From IMG/VR virus record IMGVR_UViG_2877274432_000010: a DNA stretch of 47,469 nucleotides; one strand, given 5' to 3'. The position numbers and the translations under genes are program-made. Below the pieces are notes generated by a model that saw nothing but the letters and a program-made list of their open reading frames with translations, was not told where the DNA came from and did no database searches. Position 1 is the first letter of the stretch, and the number at the start of each line of letters is the position of its first letter. Origin of the DNA: a virus (taxonomy: Duplodnaviria > Heunggongvirae > Uroviricota > Caudoviricetes). Positions 8,632 to 20,124 of the stretch are shown here, piece by piece.

Positions 8632-8648
8632 TAGGTAATGACTCCAAC

Positions 8649-9152
8649 TTACTGATAGTGTTTTATGTTCAGATAATGCCCGATGACCTTGTCATGCAGC
8701 TCCACCGATTTTGAGAACGACAGTGACTTCCGTCCCAGCCTTGCCAGATGTTGTCTCAGATTCAGATTATGTCGCTCAATGCGCTGAGTGTAACGCTTGC
8801 TGATAACGTGCAGCTTTCCCTTCAGGCGTGATTCATACAGCGGCCAGCCATCCGTCATCCATACCACGACCTCAAAGGCCGACAGCAGGCTCAGAAGACG
8901 CTCCAGTGTGGCCAGAGTGCGTTCACCGAAGACGTGCGCCACAACCGTCCTCCGTATCCTGTCATACGCGTAAAACAGCCAGCGCTGACGTGATTTAGCA
9001 CCGACGTAGCCCCAATGTTCGTCCATTTCAGCGCAGACAATCACATCACTGCCCGGTTGTATGCGCGAGGTTACCGACTGCGGCCTGAGTTTTTTAAGTG
9101 ACGTAAAACCGTGTTGAGGCCAACGCCCATAATGCGTGCACTGGCGCGACAT
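8649..9152 (-). CDS. insB: IS1 InsB
   Basis: 167-aa ORF. Confidence 0.85.
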
Positions 9153-9346
9153 CCGACGCCATTCATGGCCATATCAATGATTTTCTGGTGCGTACCGGGC
9201 TGAGAGGCGGTGTAAGTGAACTGTAGTTGCCATGTTTTACGGCAATGAGAGCAGAGATAGCGCTGATGTCCGGCAGTGCTTTTGCCGTTACGCACCACGC
9301 CTTCAGTAGCGGAGCAGGAAGGACATCTGATGGAAATGGAAGCCAC
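9071..9346 (-). CDS. insA: IS1 InsA
   Basis: 91-aa [25 protein letters not shown]... Confidence 0.85.
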
Positions 9347-9479
9347 GCAAGCACCTTAAAATCACCATCATACACTAAATCAGTAAGTTGGCAGCATTAC
9401 CCTGTTAGTATTGGCATTAATTCTGGTATACTACATAACGGGCTGAACACCCATTCTACTGCGCCAGCGGAGAACTACG

Positions 9480-10079: not shown

Positions 10080-10369
10080 TGGTGGATTTACGTAAAGCGG
10101 CGCGGGGGCAGATGTGCACCGTCAGAATTCCTGGCTACTGCAATCACAATCCCGAAACTTCTGTGCTGGCGCATTACAGGCTGGCGGGGACGTGCGGAAC
10201 AGCGACAAAACCACACGATATGCAGGCAGCGATTGCCTGTAGCTCATGCCACGATTTAATCGACGGGCGGGTAAAAACCAGCGATTACACCAAAGAAGAA
10301 TTACGCCTGATGCATGCAGAAGGTGTTTTTCGCACACAAGAAATCTGGAGAAAGGAAGGTTATTTATGA
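10079..10369 (+). CDS. YbcO-like protein (DUF1364, putative nuclease)
   Basis: MVDLRKAARGQMCTVRIPGYCNHNPETSVLAHYRLAG...CSSCHDLIDGR closely resembles DLP12 YbcO. Confidence 0.65.
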   Translation: MVDLRKAARGQMCTVRIPGYCNHNPETSVLAHYRLAGTCGTATKPHDMQAAIACSSCHDLIDGRVKTSDYTKEELRLMHAEGVFRTQEIWRKEGYL

Positions 10370-10920
10370 TTTACCCAACAAATACAGGCAAAAGCGGGGA
10401 ACACCTTCGTCTCACCACGCTGGAAAGTGTCTGGATTCAGGGAAAACTGCGCATGTGGGGGCGCTGGTCGTATATTGGCGGCGGTAAGACGGGAAATATG
10501 TTTAACCAGTTGCTGGCATCCAAAAAATTGACGAAAACAGCCGTCAATGAAGCCCTGCGCAGGATGAAAAAAGCGGGAATAGAGAAACCTGAGCTGGAAG
10601 CGTTTTTGCGAGAGATGATCAATGGCAAGCAAAAGACCTAGCTGGCGCATTGTACTGATGCAGAGGCGTTATGTATTGATAGAGTCATAAGTGAGGTGCT
10701 GGCAGAGCATCCTGGATTGATTAGTGTCCTCCGGCAACGGTATGAAGGGCGGGGGATGACTAAGCGTAAAATGGCTGAATTGCTGAATGACGCACACCCT
10801 GAGTGGTGTTTCCGGACGTGCTGCAGTCGGGTAGATGTATGGCTAAATCTTGCTGAATATATGCTCTATCTACCGATGCGTGATGCATTCTCTTCCGGGG
10901 ATCTAAAAACCGTTTGTTGA
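10366..10920 (+). pseudogene. Antitermination protein Q-like, interrupted by an in-frame amber codon
   Basis: ORF 10366-10641 ends at TAG 10639-10641 and the same frame continues without further stops to 10920; motifs LRMWGRW and CFRTCCS resemble phage-82/QuuD-type Q; position immediately upstream of a late-promoter-like region. Confidence 0.45.
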
Positions 10921-10946: not shown

Positions 10947-11009
10947 CCTCACGCGCCAGCAAAATCTGGCGTCGGGATTGGCGTCCCGGATGTTTACGGA
11001 GCGATATGA

Positions 11010-11029
11010 GACGCGCCCGCGTCTTTTTT
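11010..11029 (+). terminator. tR'-like rho-independent terminator
   Basis: GACGCG-CCC-GCGTC hairpin followed by TTTTTT about 65 bp downstream of the candidate promoter. Confidence 0.55.
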
Positions 11030-11243
11030 CATATCGTTTGCACAGTCACATTCGCGATTTATGGCGGGCTGTGTGGGGGAGCCGAAAGGCTCGCCGGTTT
11101 CCGTACCCGGTTACGCCAACCCTGCACAGTTCGCCACCAGTTCGATTGGCGTCGTCGGTGGCGATAATTTCCAAATGTACGGAGTTATCGTTATGACCAC
11201 TCAAATCTCTGTTGAAACTCTCTCCCCGATCACCCATAACCAG

Positions 11244-12490
11244 TGAGGTAGCCTGAGTTTAACGGACACTCCTTCCTGAAATAGAATGGCATCAGAAGGA
11301 GCTAATAATGAGCAGAAAAACCCAACGTTACTCTAAAGAGTTCAAAGCCGAAGCTGTCAGAACGGTTCTTGAAAATCAACTTTCGATCAGTGAAGGCGCT
11401 TCCCGATTATCCCTTCCTGAAGGCACTTTAGGACAATGGGTTACCGCCGCCAGAAAAGGGCTCGGTACTCCTGGTTCCCGCACGGTGGCTGAACTGGAAT
11501 CTGAAATTCTGCAACTGCGTAAGGCGTTAAATGAAGCTCGCCTTGAGCGAGATATATTAAATTGCACAGGAGTCGCTGAAAAATACGCGTTAATCGAACA
11601 ATGGCGACAACAATTTCCCATTGAAGCGATGTGTCAGGTATTTGGTGTATCCAGGAGCGGTTATTACAACTGGGTACAGCATGAACCCTCAGACAGAAAA
11701 CAAAGTGATGAGCGGCTAAAACTGGAGATTAAGGTGGCACATATCCGCACTCGCGAAACATATGGAACCCGGCGGCTCCAGACGGAGCTGGCAGAGAATG
11801 GCATCATCGTTGGTCGTGACCGACTGGCACGTCTTCGTAAGGAGCTGAGGCTACGCTGTAAGCAGAAACGCAAGTTCAGAGCGACTACGAACCCGAACCA
11901 CAATCTGCCAGTTGCGCCAAATCTGCTGAACCAGACGTTCGCTCCTACAGCACCAAATCAGGTCTGGGTGGCGGACCTGACGTATGTTGCCACACAGGAG
12001 GGATGGTTGTACCTCGCTGGCATCAAAGATGTTTATACGTGTGAAATTGTCGGCTACGCCATGGGAGAGCGCATGACAAAAGAGCTGACAGGTAAAGCCC
12101 TGTTTATGGCGCTCAGGAGCCAGCGCCCACCTGCCGGGCTAATCCACCACTCTGATCGAGGTTCACAGTACTGCGCATACGATTACCGGGTCATACAGGA
12201 GCAGTCTGGTCTGAAAACATCAATGTCGCGTAAAGGTAACTGTTACGACAACGCTCCGATGGAAAGCTTCTGGGGAACGCTGAAAAATGAGAGCCTGAGC
12301 CACTATCGTTTTAATAACCGGGATGAAGCCATCTCAGTAATACGGGAATACATTGAGATTTTCTACAATCGTCAGCGTCGTCACTCTCGTCTGGGGAATA
12401 TCTCCCCGGCAGCCTTCAGGGAAAAATATCATCAGATGGCTGCTTAAAAAAAGAACAAATGGTAGTGTCCGCTATTGCCAGTACACCTCA
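11244..12490 (+). mobile_element. IS600, copy 2, 1247 bp, with 17-bp internal deletion
   Basis: Both IS600 ends present; flanked by direct repeat CAG; 17 bp shorter than the other copies at the orfA/orfB junction. Confidence 0.9.
11308..12447 (+). CDS. IS600 OrfAB transposase, genomically fused single ORF
   Basis: 379-aa continuous ORF; the A-rich frameshift segment is replaced by ...ATATATTAAATTGCACAGG... Confidence 0.8.
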   Translation: MSRKTQRYSKEFKAEAVRTVLENQLSISEGASRLSLPEGTLGQWVTAARKGLGTPGSRTVAELESEILQLRKALNEARLERDILNCTGVAEKYALIEQWRQQFPIEAMCQVFGVSRSGYYNWVQHEPSDRKQSDERLKLEIKVAHIRTRETYGTRRLQTELAENGIIVGRDRLARLRKELRLRCKQKRKFRATTNPNHNLPVAPNLLNQTFAPTAPNQVWVADLTYVATQEGWLYLAGIKDVYTCEIVGYAMGERMTKELTGKALFMALRSQRPPAGLIHHSDRGSQYCAYDYRVIQEQSGLKTSMSRKGNCYDNAPMESFWGTLKNESLSHYRFNNRDEAISVIREYIEIFYNRQRRHSRLGNISPAAFREKYHQMAA

Positions 12491-13096
12491 CAGATTCCTG
12501 TTATTACCACCGAACTTTTGGCGCAGCTTTACGGCACTGAGCCGGTGCGTATTCGCCAGAATCATCATGAGAACAAAGTACGCTTCGTTGAAGGGAAACA
12601 CTTTTTCAAAGTTGTTGGTAATGACCTTAAAGAATTGCGGGTCGCTTTAAACTACTCACAAAATCCAGTTTCACCCAAAGCCCGCTCCCTCATCCTCTGG
12701 ACAGAACGAGGCGCAGCACGCCACGGCAAAATGCTCGAAACCGATCAGGCGTGGGATGTGTTCGAAAAACTGGAAGACTGCTATTTCAGTCAAAGGGATC
12801 CGTCAACGCCAGTTTCATGCCAGAAAAGTTACGACACGCGAGTTCTCTGTTATCAGAGAGGCGGTGTCACTGTTTCCACAATTCAGTTACGGGATGATGA
12901 TATTGTTATTTCCCTTGAGTCATGGCTGGAACTGGCGAGAGCCAATGGTTGGTTTGTTGTTCGCAGAGATAAACTGGTGGAAAGGTTGATGCAGCTTTAA
13001 AAAAGTTCTTGCATTTTTGCACATAAACTGCTTCAATTACGGTAAGCTTCGCAAAGCTGTATCGCGAGGCGAATAGCAGACATGGACACTTGAAAG

Positions 13097-13208: not shown

Positions 13209-13285
13209 GGCCCTTTAGCTCAGTTGGTCAGAGCGAGCGACTCATAATCGCCAGGTCGCTGGTTCAAGTCCAGCAAGGGCCACCA
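13209..13285 (+). tRNA. tRNA with CAU anticodon (Met or Ile2/lysidine type)
   Basis: Cloverleaf with 7-bp acceptor stem GGCCCTT/AAGGGCC, anticodon loop CTCATAA, T-loop GGTTCAAGTCC, 3' CCA; resembles E. coli ileX but diverged. Confidence 0.75.
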
Positions 13286-13286
13286 A

Positions 13287-13363
13287 CCACCACTAGCTCA
13301 TCCGGATAGAGCATCAACCTTCTAAGTTGACGGTGCGAGGTTCGAGTCCTCGGTGGTGGGCCA
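13287..13363 (+). tRNA. tRNA-Arg (UCU)
   Basis: Acceptor CCACCAC/GTGGTGG, anticodon stem TCAAC/GTTGA, loop CTTCTAA, T-arm CGAGG-TTCGAGT-CCTCG, CCA end. Confidence 0.8.
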
Positions 13364-13365
13364 GC

Positions 13366-13441
<76 letters not shown>

Positions 13442-13444
13442 TAT

Positions 13445-13519
<75 letters not shown>

Positions 13520-13633: not shown

Positions 13634-15238
13634 ATGATTCAGCTATCCAGTAGTCACAAACTTCCAGCAGTCTACTATCTCTACCAGCGTAACGGCGTCT
13701 ACTACTTCCGTCTTAGGGTCAGACAATCAAACAATGATAGAATGACCTCAATATCATTACGGACCAAGGATAGACGCACCGCTATGGCTTACTCAAGGCA
13801 CATAAAGGCAGCACTCAAGGCAATACACGCAGACAGACCCAACGCTACCTATGAGGAAATGAGGGAACACCTTAAGGACATCGCTGAGTGTGAACTGTCT
13901 ATGGGCCGTTCAGATCTCTTTGAGCCTGACATGAGGGATATCTACCGGGACCAATACGGAGAACTTGGTGAGAGCCTTACCGATGCTCTGGCTAGTGAGC
14001 CGCTAAGCATTGACCAGCATCGTTACATCAATGAGGCCCTGAAGGTGCTAAAAGCCTGTATGAGGCGTATCGAAGCGGGAGACAGTCAGCCTCTGATAGA
14101 TTACGTCGATCTTTTTAATGATATTGATAGGCAAGATAACCAAGCAGACTCTGTGTCCCTATCTGTTAATGCTCCAGAAGTAAAACCAGAAGTTACGCCT
14201 AGCATTACCATAGCGAGCCTCTTTGAACAATACGAAGCGGAGAACTATCAGAACTGGAAGCCTGCAACCTTAAGGGAAAACAAGGCGTCACACGCTGCGT
14301 TAATCGAAATATTCGACCATCTGGGTCTCAATGCAGACGCTAACAGGGCTGACATGCTTAGGGTCCGTGATGTGCTCCAGCAGTTACCTAGGAACCGTAA
14401 GCAGCGCTTCAAGGATGTCCCACTTGCTGACCTGTTGAGCCGTGAAGATAAGACAGATTGTCTGGATGTCGTTACCATCAACAACAAGTATCTTATTAAG
14501 ATGGCTGCTGTCTTTAGGTGGGCTGTGCGCAATGACTTGATTAAAAAGAACATGACTGAGGGTCTGGAGCTTAAAGTCCCTCAGCGTAAAGCCTCAGGGG
14601 CCCGTAACGCCTTCTCTACGGAGCAGGTGGGGCAACTACTGGTCGCAGCTAAGGCATACTCTCAGAAGACCTCTGGTAAGCCGTATCATTATTATGTTAC
14701 CGCCTTGGCTGCTATCACTGGGGCGAGACTCAATGAAATAGCCCAACTACAGGTCAAAGACGTCAGGACCACTGAGGCGGGAACCGTTTATATTCATATC
14801 AATGAAGACGATAGTAGTCTACCCGGTAAGAGCATCAAGAACGCTCATAGTGACCGCTGTGTGCCTCTGGTCGATGGGGCCTATGGTTTTATATTGGCTG
14901 ACTTTATGGCGCTTGTAGAGACCCGTAGAGGCGCTGACGGTGATGACGCTATGGTGTTCGATGGTCTGCGTCTCATGAAGAACGGTTACGGTGAGCAGGT
15001 GAGTAAATGGTTTAATCGGACGTTGTTGCCTAAAGTCCTCGTAGACCGTAGCGGCTTAGCGTTTCACTCGTTTAGACATACAGTTGCGGCCCAGTTAAAA
15101 CAACATGGGGTCGAGTTGGCGTATGCACAGGCGATCATGGGGCATAGTTCAGGGTCTATTACGTACGACCGTTATGCTAAAGAGGTCGAGGTTGATAGGC
15201 TGGTCAATGTGATGGCTGATGTTTATAAGGAGACCTAG
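13634..15238 (+). CDS. Tyrosine site-specific recombinase (integrase), 534 aa
   Basis: C-terminal catalytic region with HSFRHTVAAQL...HSSGSITYDRYA pattern (R, H-x-x-R, Y); starts 114 bp after the tRNA-Gly 3' end in the same orientation. Confidence 0.8.
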   Translation: MIQLSSSHKLPAVYYLYQRNGVYYFRLRVRQSNNDRMTSISLRTKDRRTAMAYSRHIKAALKAIHADRPNATYEEMREHLKDIAECELSMGRSDLFEPDMRDIYRDQYGELGESLTDALASEPLSIDQHRYINEALKVLKACMRRIEAGDSQPLIDYVDLFNDIDRQDNQADSVSLSVNAPEVKPEVTPSITIASLFEQYEAENYQNWKPATLRENKASHAALIEIFDHLGLNADANRADMLRVRDVLQQLPRNRKQRFKDVPLADLLSREDKTDCLDVVTINNKYLIKMAAVFRWAVRNDLIKKNMTEGLELKVPQRKASGARNAFSTEQVGQLLVAAKAYSQKTSGKPYHYYVTALAAITGARLNEIAQLQVKDVRTTEAGTVYIHINEDDSSLPGKSIKNAHSDRCVPLVDGAYGFILADFMALVETRRGADGDDAMVFDGLRLMKNGYGEQVSKWFNRTLLPKVLVDRSGLAFHSFRHTVAAQLKQHGVELAYAQAIMGHSSGSITYDRYAKEVEVDRLVNVMADVYKET

Positions 15239-15326
15239 AGGAGACCATAGTCTAGGATGACACTTACTACAGACCTGTGTGGTCATGTTTTTGACTCATA
15301 GTTTTCTCTACTTGTCAAGTGATAAT

Positions 15327-15349
15327 TAATACGACTCACTATAGGGAGA
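15327..15349 (+). promoter_or_regulatory. T7 RNA polymerase promoter consensus (copy 1)
   Basis: Exact TAATACGACTCACTATAGGGAGA; predicted +1 G at 15344, transcription rightward. Confidence 0.7.
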
Positions 15350-15447
15350 AGGGACACAAAAAGTTTTCTCTTCTAGGATGACACTTACTACAGACCTGTG
15401 CGGTCATGTTTTTGACTCATAGTTTTCTCTGCTTGTCAAGGGGTAAT

Positions 15448-15470
15448 TAATACGACTCACTATAGGGAGA
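15448..15470 (+). promoter_or_regulatory. T7 RNA polymerase promoter consensus (copy 2)
   Basis: Exact TAATACGACTCACTATAGGGAGA. Confidence 0.7.
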
Positions 15471-15567
15471 AGGGACACAAAAAGTTTTCTCTTCTAGGAT
15501 GACACTTACTACAGACCTGTGTGGTCATGTTTTTGACTCATGGTTTTCTCTACTTGTCAAGGATAAT

Positions 15568-15590
15568 TAATACGACTCACTATAGGGAGA
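15568..15590 (+). promoter_or_regulatory. T7 RNA polymerase promoter consensus (copy 3)
   Basis: Exact TAATACGACTCACTATAGGGAGA. Confidence 0.7.
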
Positions 15591-15620
15591 AGGGACACAA
15601 AAAGTTTTCTCTTCTAGGAC

Positions 15621-16059: not shown

Positions 16060-17882
<1,823 letters not shown>

Positions 17883-18251: not shown

Positions 18252-18407
18252 ATGTCTCAACAACCACAACAACCACAACAAGAAATCAGCATCATTAACC
18301 TCGACCAGCTTGTGTCCATGACCTCAGTTGAAATTGCTGAGCTGACAGGCAAGGAGCACCGAAATGTCCTTCGTGATATTCGTAAGATGCTCGAAGAACT
18401 TAACGCG
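18252..18407 (+). pseudogene. Rha-family phage regulatory protein, N-terminal fragment truncated by IS1
   Basis: SMTSVEIAELTGKEHRNVLRDIRKML matches the Rha N-terminal motif; frame runs into the IS1 end at 18408. Confidence 0.55.
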
Positions 18408-18462
18408 GGTAATGCTGCCAACTTACTGATTTAGTGTATGATGGTGATTTTAAGGTGCTTGC

Positions 18463-18738
18463 GTGGCTTCCATTTCCATCAGATGTCCTTCCTGCTCCGC
18501 TACTGAAGGCGTGGTGCGTAACGGCAAAAGCACTGCCGGACATCAGCGCTATCTCTGCTCTCATTGCCGTAAAACATGGCAACTACAGTTCACTTACACC
18601 GCCTCTCAGCCCGGTACGCACCAGAAAATCATTGATATGGCCATGAATGGCGTCGGATGTCGTGCCAGTGCACGCATTATGGGCGTTGGCCTCAACACGG
18701 TTTTACGTCACTTAAAAAACTCAGGCCGCAGTCGGTAA
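18463..18738 (+). CDS. insA: IS1 InsA
   Basis: 91-aa ORF. Confidence 0.85.
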
Positions 18739-19160
18739 CCTCGCGCATACAACCGGGCAGTGATGTGATTGTCTGCGCTGAAATGGACGAACATTGGGGC
18801 TACGTCGGTGCTAAATCACGTCAGCGCTGGCTGTTTTACGCGTATGACAGGATACGGAGGACGGTTGTGGCGCACGTCTTCGGTGAACGCACTCTGGCCA
18901 CACTGGAGCGTCTTCTGAGCCTGCTGTCGGCCTTTGAGGTCGTGGTATGGATGACGGATGGCTGGCCGCTGTATGAATCACGCCTGAAGGGAAAGCTGCA
19001 CGTTATCAGCAAGCGTTACACTCAGCGCATTGAGCGACATAATCTGAATCTGAGACAACATCTGGCAAGGCTGGTACGGAAGTCACTGTCGTTCTCAAAA
19101 TCGGTGGAGCTGCATGACAAGGTCATCGGGCATTATCTGAACATAAAACACTATCAGTAA
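18657..19160 (+). CDS. insB: IS1 InsB
   Basis: 167-aa ORF (MSCQCTHY variant). Confidence 0.85.
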
Positions 19161-19175
19161 GTTGGAGTCATTACC

Positions 19176-20124
19176 AAAAAAAGCAACAGCGTATTTTGCA
19201 CAGGAGTCGCTGAAAAATACGCGTTAATCGAACAATGGCGACAACAATTTCCCATTGAAGCGATGTGTCAGGTATTTGGTGTATCCAGGAGCGGTTATTA
19301 CAACTGGGTACAGCATGAACCCTCAGACAGAAAACAAAGTGATGAGCGGCTAAAACCGGAGATTAAGGTGGCACATATCCGCACTCGCGAAACATATGGA
19401 ACCCGGCGGCTCCAGACGGAGCTGGCAGAGAATGGCATCATCGTTGGTCGTGACCGACTGGCACGTCTTCGTAAGGAGCTGAGGCTACGCTGTAAGCAGA
19501 AACGCAAGTTCAGAGCGACTACGAACCCGAACCACAATCTGCCAGTTGCGCCAAATCTGCTGAACCAGACGTTCGCTCCTACAGCACCAAATCAGGTCTG
19601 GGTGGCGGACCTGACGTATGTTGCCACACAGGAGGGATGGTTGTACCTCGCTGGCATCAAAGATGTTTATACGTGTGAAATTGTCGGCTACGCCATGGGA
19701 GAGCGCATGACAAAAGAGCTGACAGGTAAAGCCCTGTTTATGGCGCTCAGGAGCCAGCGCCCACCTGCCGGGCTAATCCACCACTCTGATCGAGGTTCAC
19801 AGTACTGCGCATACGATTACCGGGTCATACAGGAGCAGTCTGGTCTGAAAACATCAATGTCGCGTAAAGGTAACTGTTACGACAACGCTCCGATGGAAAG
19901 CTTCTGGGGAACGCTGAAAAATGAGAGCCTGAGCCACTATCGTTTTAATAACCGGGATGAAGCCATCTCAGTAATACGGGAATACATTGAGATTTTCTAC
20001 AATCGTCAGCGTCGTCACTCTCGTCTGGGGAATATCTCCCCGGCAGCCTTCAGGGAAAAATATCATCAGATGACTGCTTAAAAAAAGAACAAATGGTAGT
20101 GTCCGCTATTGCCAGTACACCTCA
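19176..20124 (+). mobile_element. IS600, 5'-truncated partial copy
   Basis: Begins inside the A-rich frameshift region and runs to the normal right end ...GCCAGTACACCTCA; lacks orfA. Confidence 0.85.
19263..20081 (+). CDS. IS600 OrfB
   Basis: 272-aa ORF with copy-specific substitutions. Confidence 0.85.
   Translation: MCQVFGVSRSGYYNWVQHEPSDRKQSDERLKPEIKVAHIRTRETYGTRRLQTELAENGIIVGRDRLARLRKELRLRCKQKRKFRATTNPNHNLPVAPNLLNQTFAPTAPNQVWVADLTYVATQEGWLYLAGIKDVYTCEIVGYAMGERMTKELTGKALFMALRSQRPPAGLIHHSDRGSQYCAYDYRVIQEQSGLKTSMSRKGNCYDNAPMESFWGTLKNESLSHYRFNNRDEAISVIREYIEIFYNRQRRHSRLGNISPAAFREKYHQMTA

Follow-up and report, generated by a model that had tools for sequence, protein, structure and literature searches.

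When a small deletion joins the two reading frames of an insertion sequence (IS) of the IS3 family, does the copy transpose without restraint, or does it stay where it is? The question is raised by a copy of IS600 at positions 11244-12490 (+ strand) of the stretch analysed here. This stretch, which we call the window, is the whole of the 47,469 nucleotides of IMG/VR record IMGVR_UViG_2877274432_000010, catalogued as a virus of the Caudoviricetes; the window is Shigella flexneri chromosome, and the Shigella small RNA CssrB is matched in it (Rfam). We found that 11244-12490 is a naturally occurring derivative of IS600 that is atypical only in its two-frame/frameshift organisation, and our assessment is that it probably represents an IS600 allele without translational regulation that persists as a quiet, vertically inherited single copy and is not hyperactive. 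The allele is common and already in RefSeq, and is a real variant of a known element.

Near-identity over the whole length, together with 5'-TG...CA-3' termini, identifies the copy as IS600. Of the five IS600 copies in the window, four are full-length and one is truncated, and the features on which the argument turns are as follows.

11244-12490, + strand: IS600 copy with the 17-bp deletion, 1247 bp, with 1-3 substitutions in addition to the deletion relative to the local wild-type copies
11244-11272, + strand: left terminal inverted repeat (TGAGGTAGCC...), the same as in the other copies, with four exact matches in the window
12462-12490, + strand: right terminal inverted repeat (...CAGTACACCTCA), the same as in the majority of copies
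11559-11564, + strand: deletion junction AAA/TTG, with the break between 11561 and 11562 and IS nucleotides 319-335 gone
11308-12447, + strand: fused orfAB open reading frame (ORF), 379 aa, with HTH_Tnp_1 at residues 3-75, HTH_21 at 134-190 and rve at 214-312 (Pfam), and D223, D283 and E319
437-1700, - strand: IS600 comparison copy, full-length (1264 bp), wild-type tract
33741-35004, + strand: IS600 comparison copy, full-length (1264 bp), wild-type tract, nonsense codon in orfA
45717-46980, + strand: IS600 comparison copy, full-length (1264 bp), wild-type tract, GTT target duplication
19176-20125, + strand: IS600 comparison copy, 5'-truncated, starting at the A-run and abutting IS1, wild-type tract

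The initial annotation had claimed a 17-bp deletion at the orfA/orfB junction of this copy, with the other copies wild-type there, and the alignment of all IS600 copies in the window confirmed it. The missing bases are AAAAGCAACAGCGTATT, which are present in the three other full copies and in the truncated one (four copies with the wild-type tract versus one deleted copy). Thus the wild-type tract reads ...GATATATTAAA AAAAGCAACAGCGTATT TTGCACAGG..., whereas the deleted copy reads ...GATATATTAAA directly followed by TTGCACAGG.... This gap, IS nucleotides 319-335, is the sole length difference among the aligned full copies, and because no microhomology was found at the junction its placement is unique. 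A 22-nt left extension that a repeat finder reported as shared with the 437-1700 copy was set aside as a tolerated low-identity extension; the flank is not shared.

A gap at a homopolymer might be an assembly or sequencing artefact, particularly as the deletion begins in an A7 run and as two assemblies differ by one nucleotide in either direction elsewhere in the element (1246 and 1248 bp). However, the same deletion was found at the same locus in all eight long S. flexneri chromosome assemblies that we fetched, and eight further S. flexneri assemblies are listed as similar at this locus. The junction is also shared by 461 complete E. coli genomes and 33 metagenome contigs, and a homopolymer error does not remove 17 bp of mixed sequence. 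Recurrence of the identical deletion across assemblies therefore excludes an assembly error, and we regard any artefact as next to inconceivable.

The consequences for translation follow from what was removed. Wild-type IS600 (IS3 group, 1264 bp, orfA/orfB) relies on a programmed -1 frameshift; its orfA encodes 100 aa and passes through TTA AAA AAA GCA, and a hairpin formed by AACAGCGUAUUU and AAAUACGCGUU lies a few bases 3' of the A7 run (-22.3 kcal/mol, z = -3.0 versus shuffles). The deletion takes away four of the seven slippery A's (A7 to A3), the spacer and the 5' hairpin arm, and the sequence that is left folds no better than shuffles (z = -0.6). At the same time, the loss of 17 bp shifts the frame as a 1-nt insertion would, so that the net effect equals that of a -1 ribosomal slip. 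Alignment and ORF analysis together bore out the proposal that the frameshift window is removed and that orfA and orfB are joined in frame, and the continuous 379-aa ORF (OrfAB) that had been reported is indeed there. Because the signal is lost and the frames are joined, frameshifting is both unnecessary and impossible in this copy, which cannot make OrfA. Every ribosome starting at the orfA ATG makes one 379-aa OrfAB-like protein. The deleted copy still shares with wild-type IS600 its ends, its 3-bp duplication, the promoter-proximal region and the DDE core, but differs in lacking nucleotides 319-335, in having one ORF instead of two, in the absence of OrfA and in an OrfAB that is 6 aa shorter. 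We had tried the Rfam ALIL frameshift pseudoknot as a score for signal loss, but no IS600 copy matches it and folding was used instead; the one strong ALIL match, at 31871-31987 (-), belongs to another IS3-family element, with a group II intron domain match nearby at 29262-29348 (-).

Compared with the consensus copy's conceptual -1 frameshift product, the fused protein differs only by the replacement of KKSNSVF with N, a net loss of six residues. The catalytic residues D223, D283 and E319 of this DD35E DDE transposase are invariant in an alignment with relatives. Additional inactivating lesions in the fused ORF would have argued against an active transposase, but there is no other amino-acid change from the consensus, and the DDE triad and the domains are intact. 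The neighbouring copies, by comparison, depart from the consensus OrfAB by V60L, by H287Y, or by a nonsense codon plus three missense changes. The last of these is the copy at 33741-35004, in which GAG has become TAG at orfA codon 11 (around position 33835) and the three missense changes fall in the conceptual OrfAB. This copy has no target duplication (CTC on the left, CAG on the right) and is dead, possibly recombinant. The copy at 19176-20125 is cut at IS nucleotide ~316 by the abutting IS1 (18407-19175), an end point that again falls in the frameshift tract.

The six lost residues lie just after the leucine zipper. Four heptads are kept, with d positions L63, L70, A77 and L84 when L63 is set at d, whereas the segment that follows, in which N88 and F91 would be a and d, is lost. 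In two low-confidence structure models (mean predicted local distance difference test scores, pLDDT, of 48 and 51), the zipper helix (residues 60-84) stops at residues 84-85, and the deleted residues fall inside a linker that shrinks from ~10 to ~3 residues. Models of this quality are too poor for a fold search, and only their helix boundaries were used. In IS2, single substitutions in the zipper abolish transposition (PMC3219604), and the fused IS600 protein may likewise be impaired by the loss of six residues next to its zipper. The 376-aa 'ISSfl10 family transposase' was considered as a possible single-ORF relative and rejected, as it is an IS600 OrfAB of the ordinary kind, annotated with a frameshift, whose catalytic core has an unrelated deletion of 9 aa.

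Engineered elements provide the obvious precedent for such a fusion. A 1-bp insertion in IS911 and an A6G to A7G change in IS2 likewise yield OrfAB without frameshifting, make it the main product and raise transposase supply (PMC2909936, PMC3219604). By analogy, the window copy might synthesise full-length transposase constitutively, escape both the frameshift limit and OrfA control, and transpose far above the wild-type level, which is what the initial annotation meant in calling it constitutively hyperactive. The fused frames, the intact DDE triad, DNA-binding domains and ends, and the analogy itself all fit this idea. Yet the engineered fusions keep the OrfAB sequence unchanged, whereas the deleted IS600 loses six residues beside the zipper; because these residues are missing and there is no OrfA, the natural fusion is not equivalent to the engineered ones. 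Moreover, the deleted IS600 shows no gain in copy number in population data, which serve as a proxy for its behaviour.

These population data come from searches with a 56-bp sequence across the junction. It was found in 461 of 5426 complete E. coli genomes (~8%), at 469 places, with a median of one and a maximum of two per genome; in the one two-copy genome that was examined, the second copy stems from a tandem duplication of the whole island. On several of the chromosomes listed, the deleted allele is the only place matching IS600. The exact window protein was found at 19 places on 19 contigs, one each, and S. flexneri contigs likewise carry one deleted copy apiece, as against the four copies with the wild-type tract in the window; IS600 is one of five ISs that have expanded in all Shigella species (PMC7373316). 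Since no genome shows proliferation of the allele, hyperactivity is unsupported.

At every E. coli locus that was fetched, the deleted allele sits in the fec island, with lpxM (of the capU-virK-lpxM module) on one side and the gene of a BCCT transporter on the other. Its product is listed in RefSeq as 'IS3 family transposase' (WP_000088357.1), without any frameshift annotation. Two substitutions, P196S and S300F, separate the E. coli protein from that of the window, whose allele has the wild-type consensus at both residues. Three further contigs (L003 and L010 among them) have the exact window protein at the lpxM locus, and their single nucleotide polymorphism (SNP) patterns lie between those of the E. 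coli and S. flexneri alleles; CP162080 carries the exact window protein at the lpxM locus. Among near-identical variants, P0002, P0003 and P0006 are all located between lpxM and the BCCT gene, and P0008 has a different left flank. In the metagenome contigs with the identical junction, the deleted allele is found with several other flanks, one of them with an AAC duplication, but these were not counted as loci, since a 1.2-kb repeat can give rise to chimeras in short-read assemblies. The junction of the 17-bp deletion was absent from the Shigella plasmids in PLSDB, and a scan of a contig collection holding one genome per species found no shortened tracts. We found no description of the 17-bp-deleted allele in the full-text literature.

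Two features of the E. coli locus deserve mention in their own right. The 82 bp to the left of the deleted IS600 at lpxM (L012, 2425-2506) are found again in many unrelated surroundings on plasmids and chromosomes, such as beside an IS66 tnpA gene or a flavin monooxygenase gene, and are probably a fragment of another repeated element; their last 10 nt are also seen next to a wild-type IS600 on pINV plasmids of S. flexneri. Furthermore, the flanks of the element are alike in the two organisms, with AACCAG on the left and CAGATTCC on the right in S. flexneri (11238-11243, 12491-12498) versus AACCAA and ACATTCC at the E. coli lpxM/BCCT site (L012, 2501-2506 and 3754-3760). The Shigella flank is the native target, as the empty site shows; the shared motif was not seen at other IS600 sites, and we found no mechanism for it.

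How the window copy came to its present place can be read from its surroundings.

10953-11141, + strand: isrK and C4 antisense-RNA immunity module (Rfam), just upstream of the antirepressor gene
11193-11243, + strand: 5' part of the interrupted prophage ORF6N antirepressor gene, 17 codons, MTTQISVETLSPITHNQ
11241-11243, + strand: left target duplication, CAG
12491-12493, + strand: right target duplication, CAG
12494-13000, + strand: 3' part of the interrupted ORF6N antirepressor gene

When the empty site is rebuilt with a single CAG, it aligns in one ungapped piece to intact ORF6N antirepressor genes of E. coli prophages (99.8% over 400 bp). Both the flanks and this match bear out the clean CAG target duplication that had been claimed, and show that IS600 entered the antirepressor gene of this cryptic prophage by a canonical simple insertion that duplicated 3 bp and broke the reading frame after codon 17. 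The alternative suggestion of the initial annotation, that the copy is a fossil of a transposition intermediate, is not supported, as the element is a normal simple insertion. The copy would have arrived in the antirepressor gene by such an insertion, which many S. flexneri assemblies have in common. The window was found to contain no uninterrupted paralogue of the antirepressor target sequence.

The allele is nevertheless not confined to one place. It is present between lpxM and the BCCT gene in E. coli, in the antirepressor gene with its CAG duplication in S. flexneri, and with a third left flank in L031, and it has therefore moved at least once. The occupation of more than one locus, with a clean duplication in the window, is what hyperactivity would predict, but it does not require high activity. 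The movement could have been autonomous, driven in trans by wild-type transposase, or imitated by gene conversion. For a quiet allele, such rare relocations would reflect either low-level autonomous transposition or the action of wild-type IS600 transposase on its intact ends.

A sharper version of the same argument holds that the fused protein is dead, because of the six-residue loss or the lack of OrfA, and that all relocations are due to wild-type transposase acting in trans or to gene conversion of a resident wild-type copy. Several observations would fit this. A gain in copy number was seen nowhere, single substitutions are very poorly tolerated in the IS2 zipper (PMC3219604), and the many wild-type S. 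flexneri copies, among them those in the window, could supply transposase (PMC7373316). Exchange of sequence is documented as well, since all four combinations of the deletion and the SNP at position 621 are seen, and this four-gamete conflict shows that IS600 copies exchange sequence with each other. On the other hand, the four main heptads of the zipper are kept and the deleted residues lie in a linker predicted, at low confidence, by the models. Apart from the deletion, the amino-acid sequence of the S. flexneri allele is unchanged, whereas 1-4 changes are found in each of three neighbouring copies. The transposases of IS3-family elements, as established for IS911, act preferentially in cis, which also counts against a dead protein mobilised from elsewhere. 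Taking both sides together, we consider a dead protein rather unlikely.

A second natural fusion helps to judge what occurrence at two loci can mean. In this allele, 80 bp are deleted between 7-bp direct repeats, which gives a 358-aa fusion with half of the zipper removed. One of its locations is a php-like gene, where it has a TCT duplication; the other is next to the lpxM-side flank. Because this fusion shows the same two-locus pattern as the 17-bp allele, occurrence at two loci is no proof of an active protein, and the point also weighs against hyperactivity.

Some considerations weigh against a quiet allele and should be stated together. Copy number is only a proxy for activity, and selection could eliminate a hyperactive copy before it is detected. 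Because the E. coli allele carries P196S and S300F, its quiescence is not fully transferable to the S. flexneri allele. Finally, the 17-bp fusion and two other natural in-frame fusions, with deletions of 14 and 80 bp, are each found with a clean 3-bp duplication at a new site, which fits transposition-proficient fusions and would also be expected of hyperactive ones. Even so, with no genome in which the allele has multiplied, we judge a hyperactive IS600 to be quite improbable, and a quiet, vertically inherited allele remains the reading that we hold to be probable.

The question of how the deletion arose leads to a second insertion sequence, IS30. In EC2, K-12 and LS45, an IS30 is inserted between IS600 nucleotides 327 and 328 with an AC duplication. 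The IS30 of EC2 has the opposite orientation, so that these are independent insertions at the same dinucleotide. The frameshift tract is a hot spot for IS30 insertion, and small lesions also recur there. Besides the 17-bp deletion, there are 3-bp deletions beside nucleotide 327, a 13-bp deletion (nucleotides 317-329) that is out of frame, and a 14-bp deletion (nucleotides 320-333) on pINV of enteroinvasive E. coli (EIEC) that is in frame and gives a 380-aa fusion, with an ACC duplication. In the alleles of L048 and L071, IS30 bases are probably kept. The 14-, 80-, 13- and 3-bp deletions, like the 17-bp deletion, lie across or beside the frameshift window; their end points differ, and the 14- and 80-bp deletions also fuse the frames.

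The right junction of IS600 with the BCCT gene was found in 1495 genomes, about three times the number with the 17-bp deletion. An orthologous copy of IS600 in the fec island, defined by the order fecE, ISEc52', IS600, BCCT gene, allows the states of the tract to be compared at one position.

LS45: IS30 in place
K-12: IS30 in place, with loss of the right part
BL21 and many others: TGTAGATT (the first 8 nt of IS30) replaces AGCGTATT
Strains with the 17-bp deletion: deletion, with the lpxM module on the left

The BL21 allele and the IS600::IS30 of K-12, LS45 and EC2 thus have their lesions in the same tract as the deleted allele, and the copy beside the BCCT gene in the fec island is orthologous. 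The BL21 allele differs from the 17-bp deletion in that it keeps the 1264-bp length and both frames and contains nucleotides of IS30. E. coli B strains have a single IS600 (BL21 type; L016, ~nucleotides 328-335 of the element), which is annotated as intact with a programmed frameshift, yet the 8 nt of IS30 replace the 5' arm of the hairpin. REL606, a B strain, carries one IS600 copy in the long-term evolution experiment (PMC7881107), and the single IS600 of K-12, an IS30-truncated remnant, never transposed in mutation-accumulation lines (PMC5009759).

The 17-bp deletion spans the IS30 insertion point, since it removes 7 nt, then the AC that is duplicated by IS30, then 8 nt. Its right breakpoint and that of the BL21 scar are within 3 nt of each other, and both arms of IS600 in the EC2 IS600::IS30 are 100% identical to the deleted allele of E. 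coli. The deletion might accordingly be the trace of an inserted IS30 that the host lost imprecisely, an origin that we consider tenable but on which we would not rely. Against it stand the absence of IS30 terminal nucleotides at the junction of the 17-bp deletion and, as said, of microhomology. IS30 transposes by a copy-out-paste-in mechanism without conservative excision (PMC9333248), and a loss of IS30 would therefore have to be a host deletion. An uninterrupted wild-type IS600 with the same haplotype exists, and it is for this reason that the haplotype A621, T667, T980, shared by the deleted E. coli allele, the IS600::IS30 copies and the BL21 scar, was dropped as a proof of IS30 origin. 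Nor is it very improbable that a deletion should cover the IS30 site by chance, because any frame-fusing deletion must lie in the short orfA/orfB overlap. The case is further weakened by the fact that our allele searches were confined to this tract. A direct spontaneous deletion seems to us a reasonably likely origin.

The prophage that was struck by the window copy shows other signs of its history. The Q-antiterminator-like gene (DUF1133) at 10366-10920, which precedes the isrK/C4 module, is interrupted at codon 92 by an in-frame stop (10639-10641). This gene is intact (184 aa) in some other S. flexneri assemblies, and the stop in the window is a further sign of prophage decay. An ORF at 12353-13000 opens inside the right end of IS600, runs through the terminal repeat and continues in frame with the antirepressor gene's 3' part; in related assemblies, gene callers predict a 160-186-aa ORF6N protein from a start inside IS600. 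Judging from these reading frames, an N-terminally replaced antirepressor could in principle be expressed. A tRNA cluster lies between the antirepressor and integrase genes (13209-13519; Met-CAT, Arg-TCT, Thr-TGT, Gly-TCC), and downstream of the 534-aa integrase ORF (13634-15238) a 121-bp unit is present in three tandem copies at 15251-15613 (100%, 97% and 69% identity to the reference copy). A second isrK and C4 module, at 39270-39458 (-), points to a second, related prophage remnant. In addition to the five IS600 copies, there are four copies of IS1 (8634-9402 (-), 18407-19175, 27633-28403 and 44237-45005), which makes these 47 kb very IS-dense. Other long repeats pair 2151-2450 with 37338-37637, 22170-22469 with 41115-41414, and 16591-16890 with 17237-17536.

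For the window itself, the finding amounts to one more degenerate IS copy that disrupts a cryptic-prophage antirepressor gene in an IS-laden Shigella chromosome. The allele as such is of wider interest, being a natural experiment on the loss of frameshift control in an IS3-family element. It is old enough to be present in ~8% of complete E. coli genomes and yet never multiplied there, thus suggesting that runaway transposition takes more than frame fusion, or that the fusions seen here are crippled. In practical terms, the RefSeq name 'IS3 family transposase' hides both the IS600 identity of the protein and the loss of its frameshift, and IS600 copy counts based on length or coverage still include the deleted allele. 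The IS30 hot spot in the frameshift signal offers a modest but tangible case in which one IS targets another, and the recurrent lesions there are the most interesting by-product of this work. A broader and rather doubtful extension is that IS30 landings, their imprecise losses and other small deletions repeatedly create single-ORF derivatives of IS600 (the 14-, 17- and 80-bp alleles), some of them autonomous without frameshifting or OrfA. If this were true, it would give one IS a natural way of rewiring how another is regulated.

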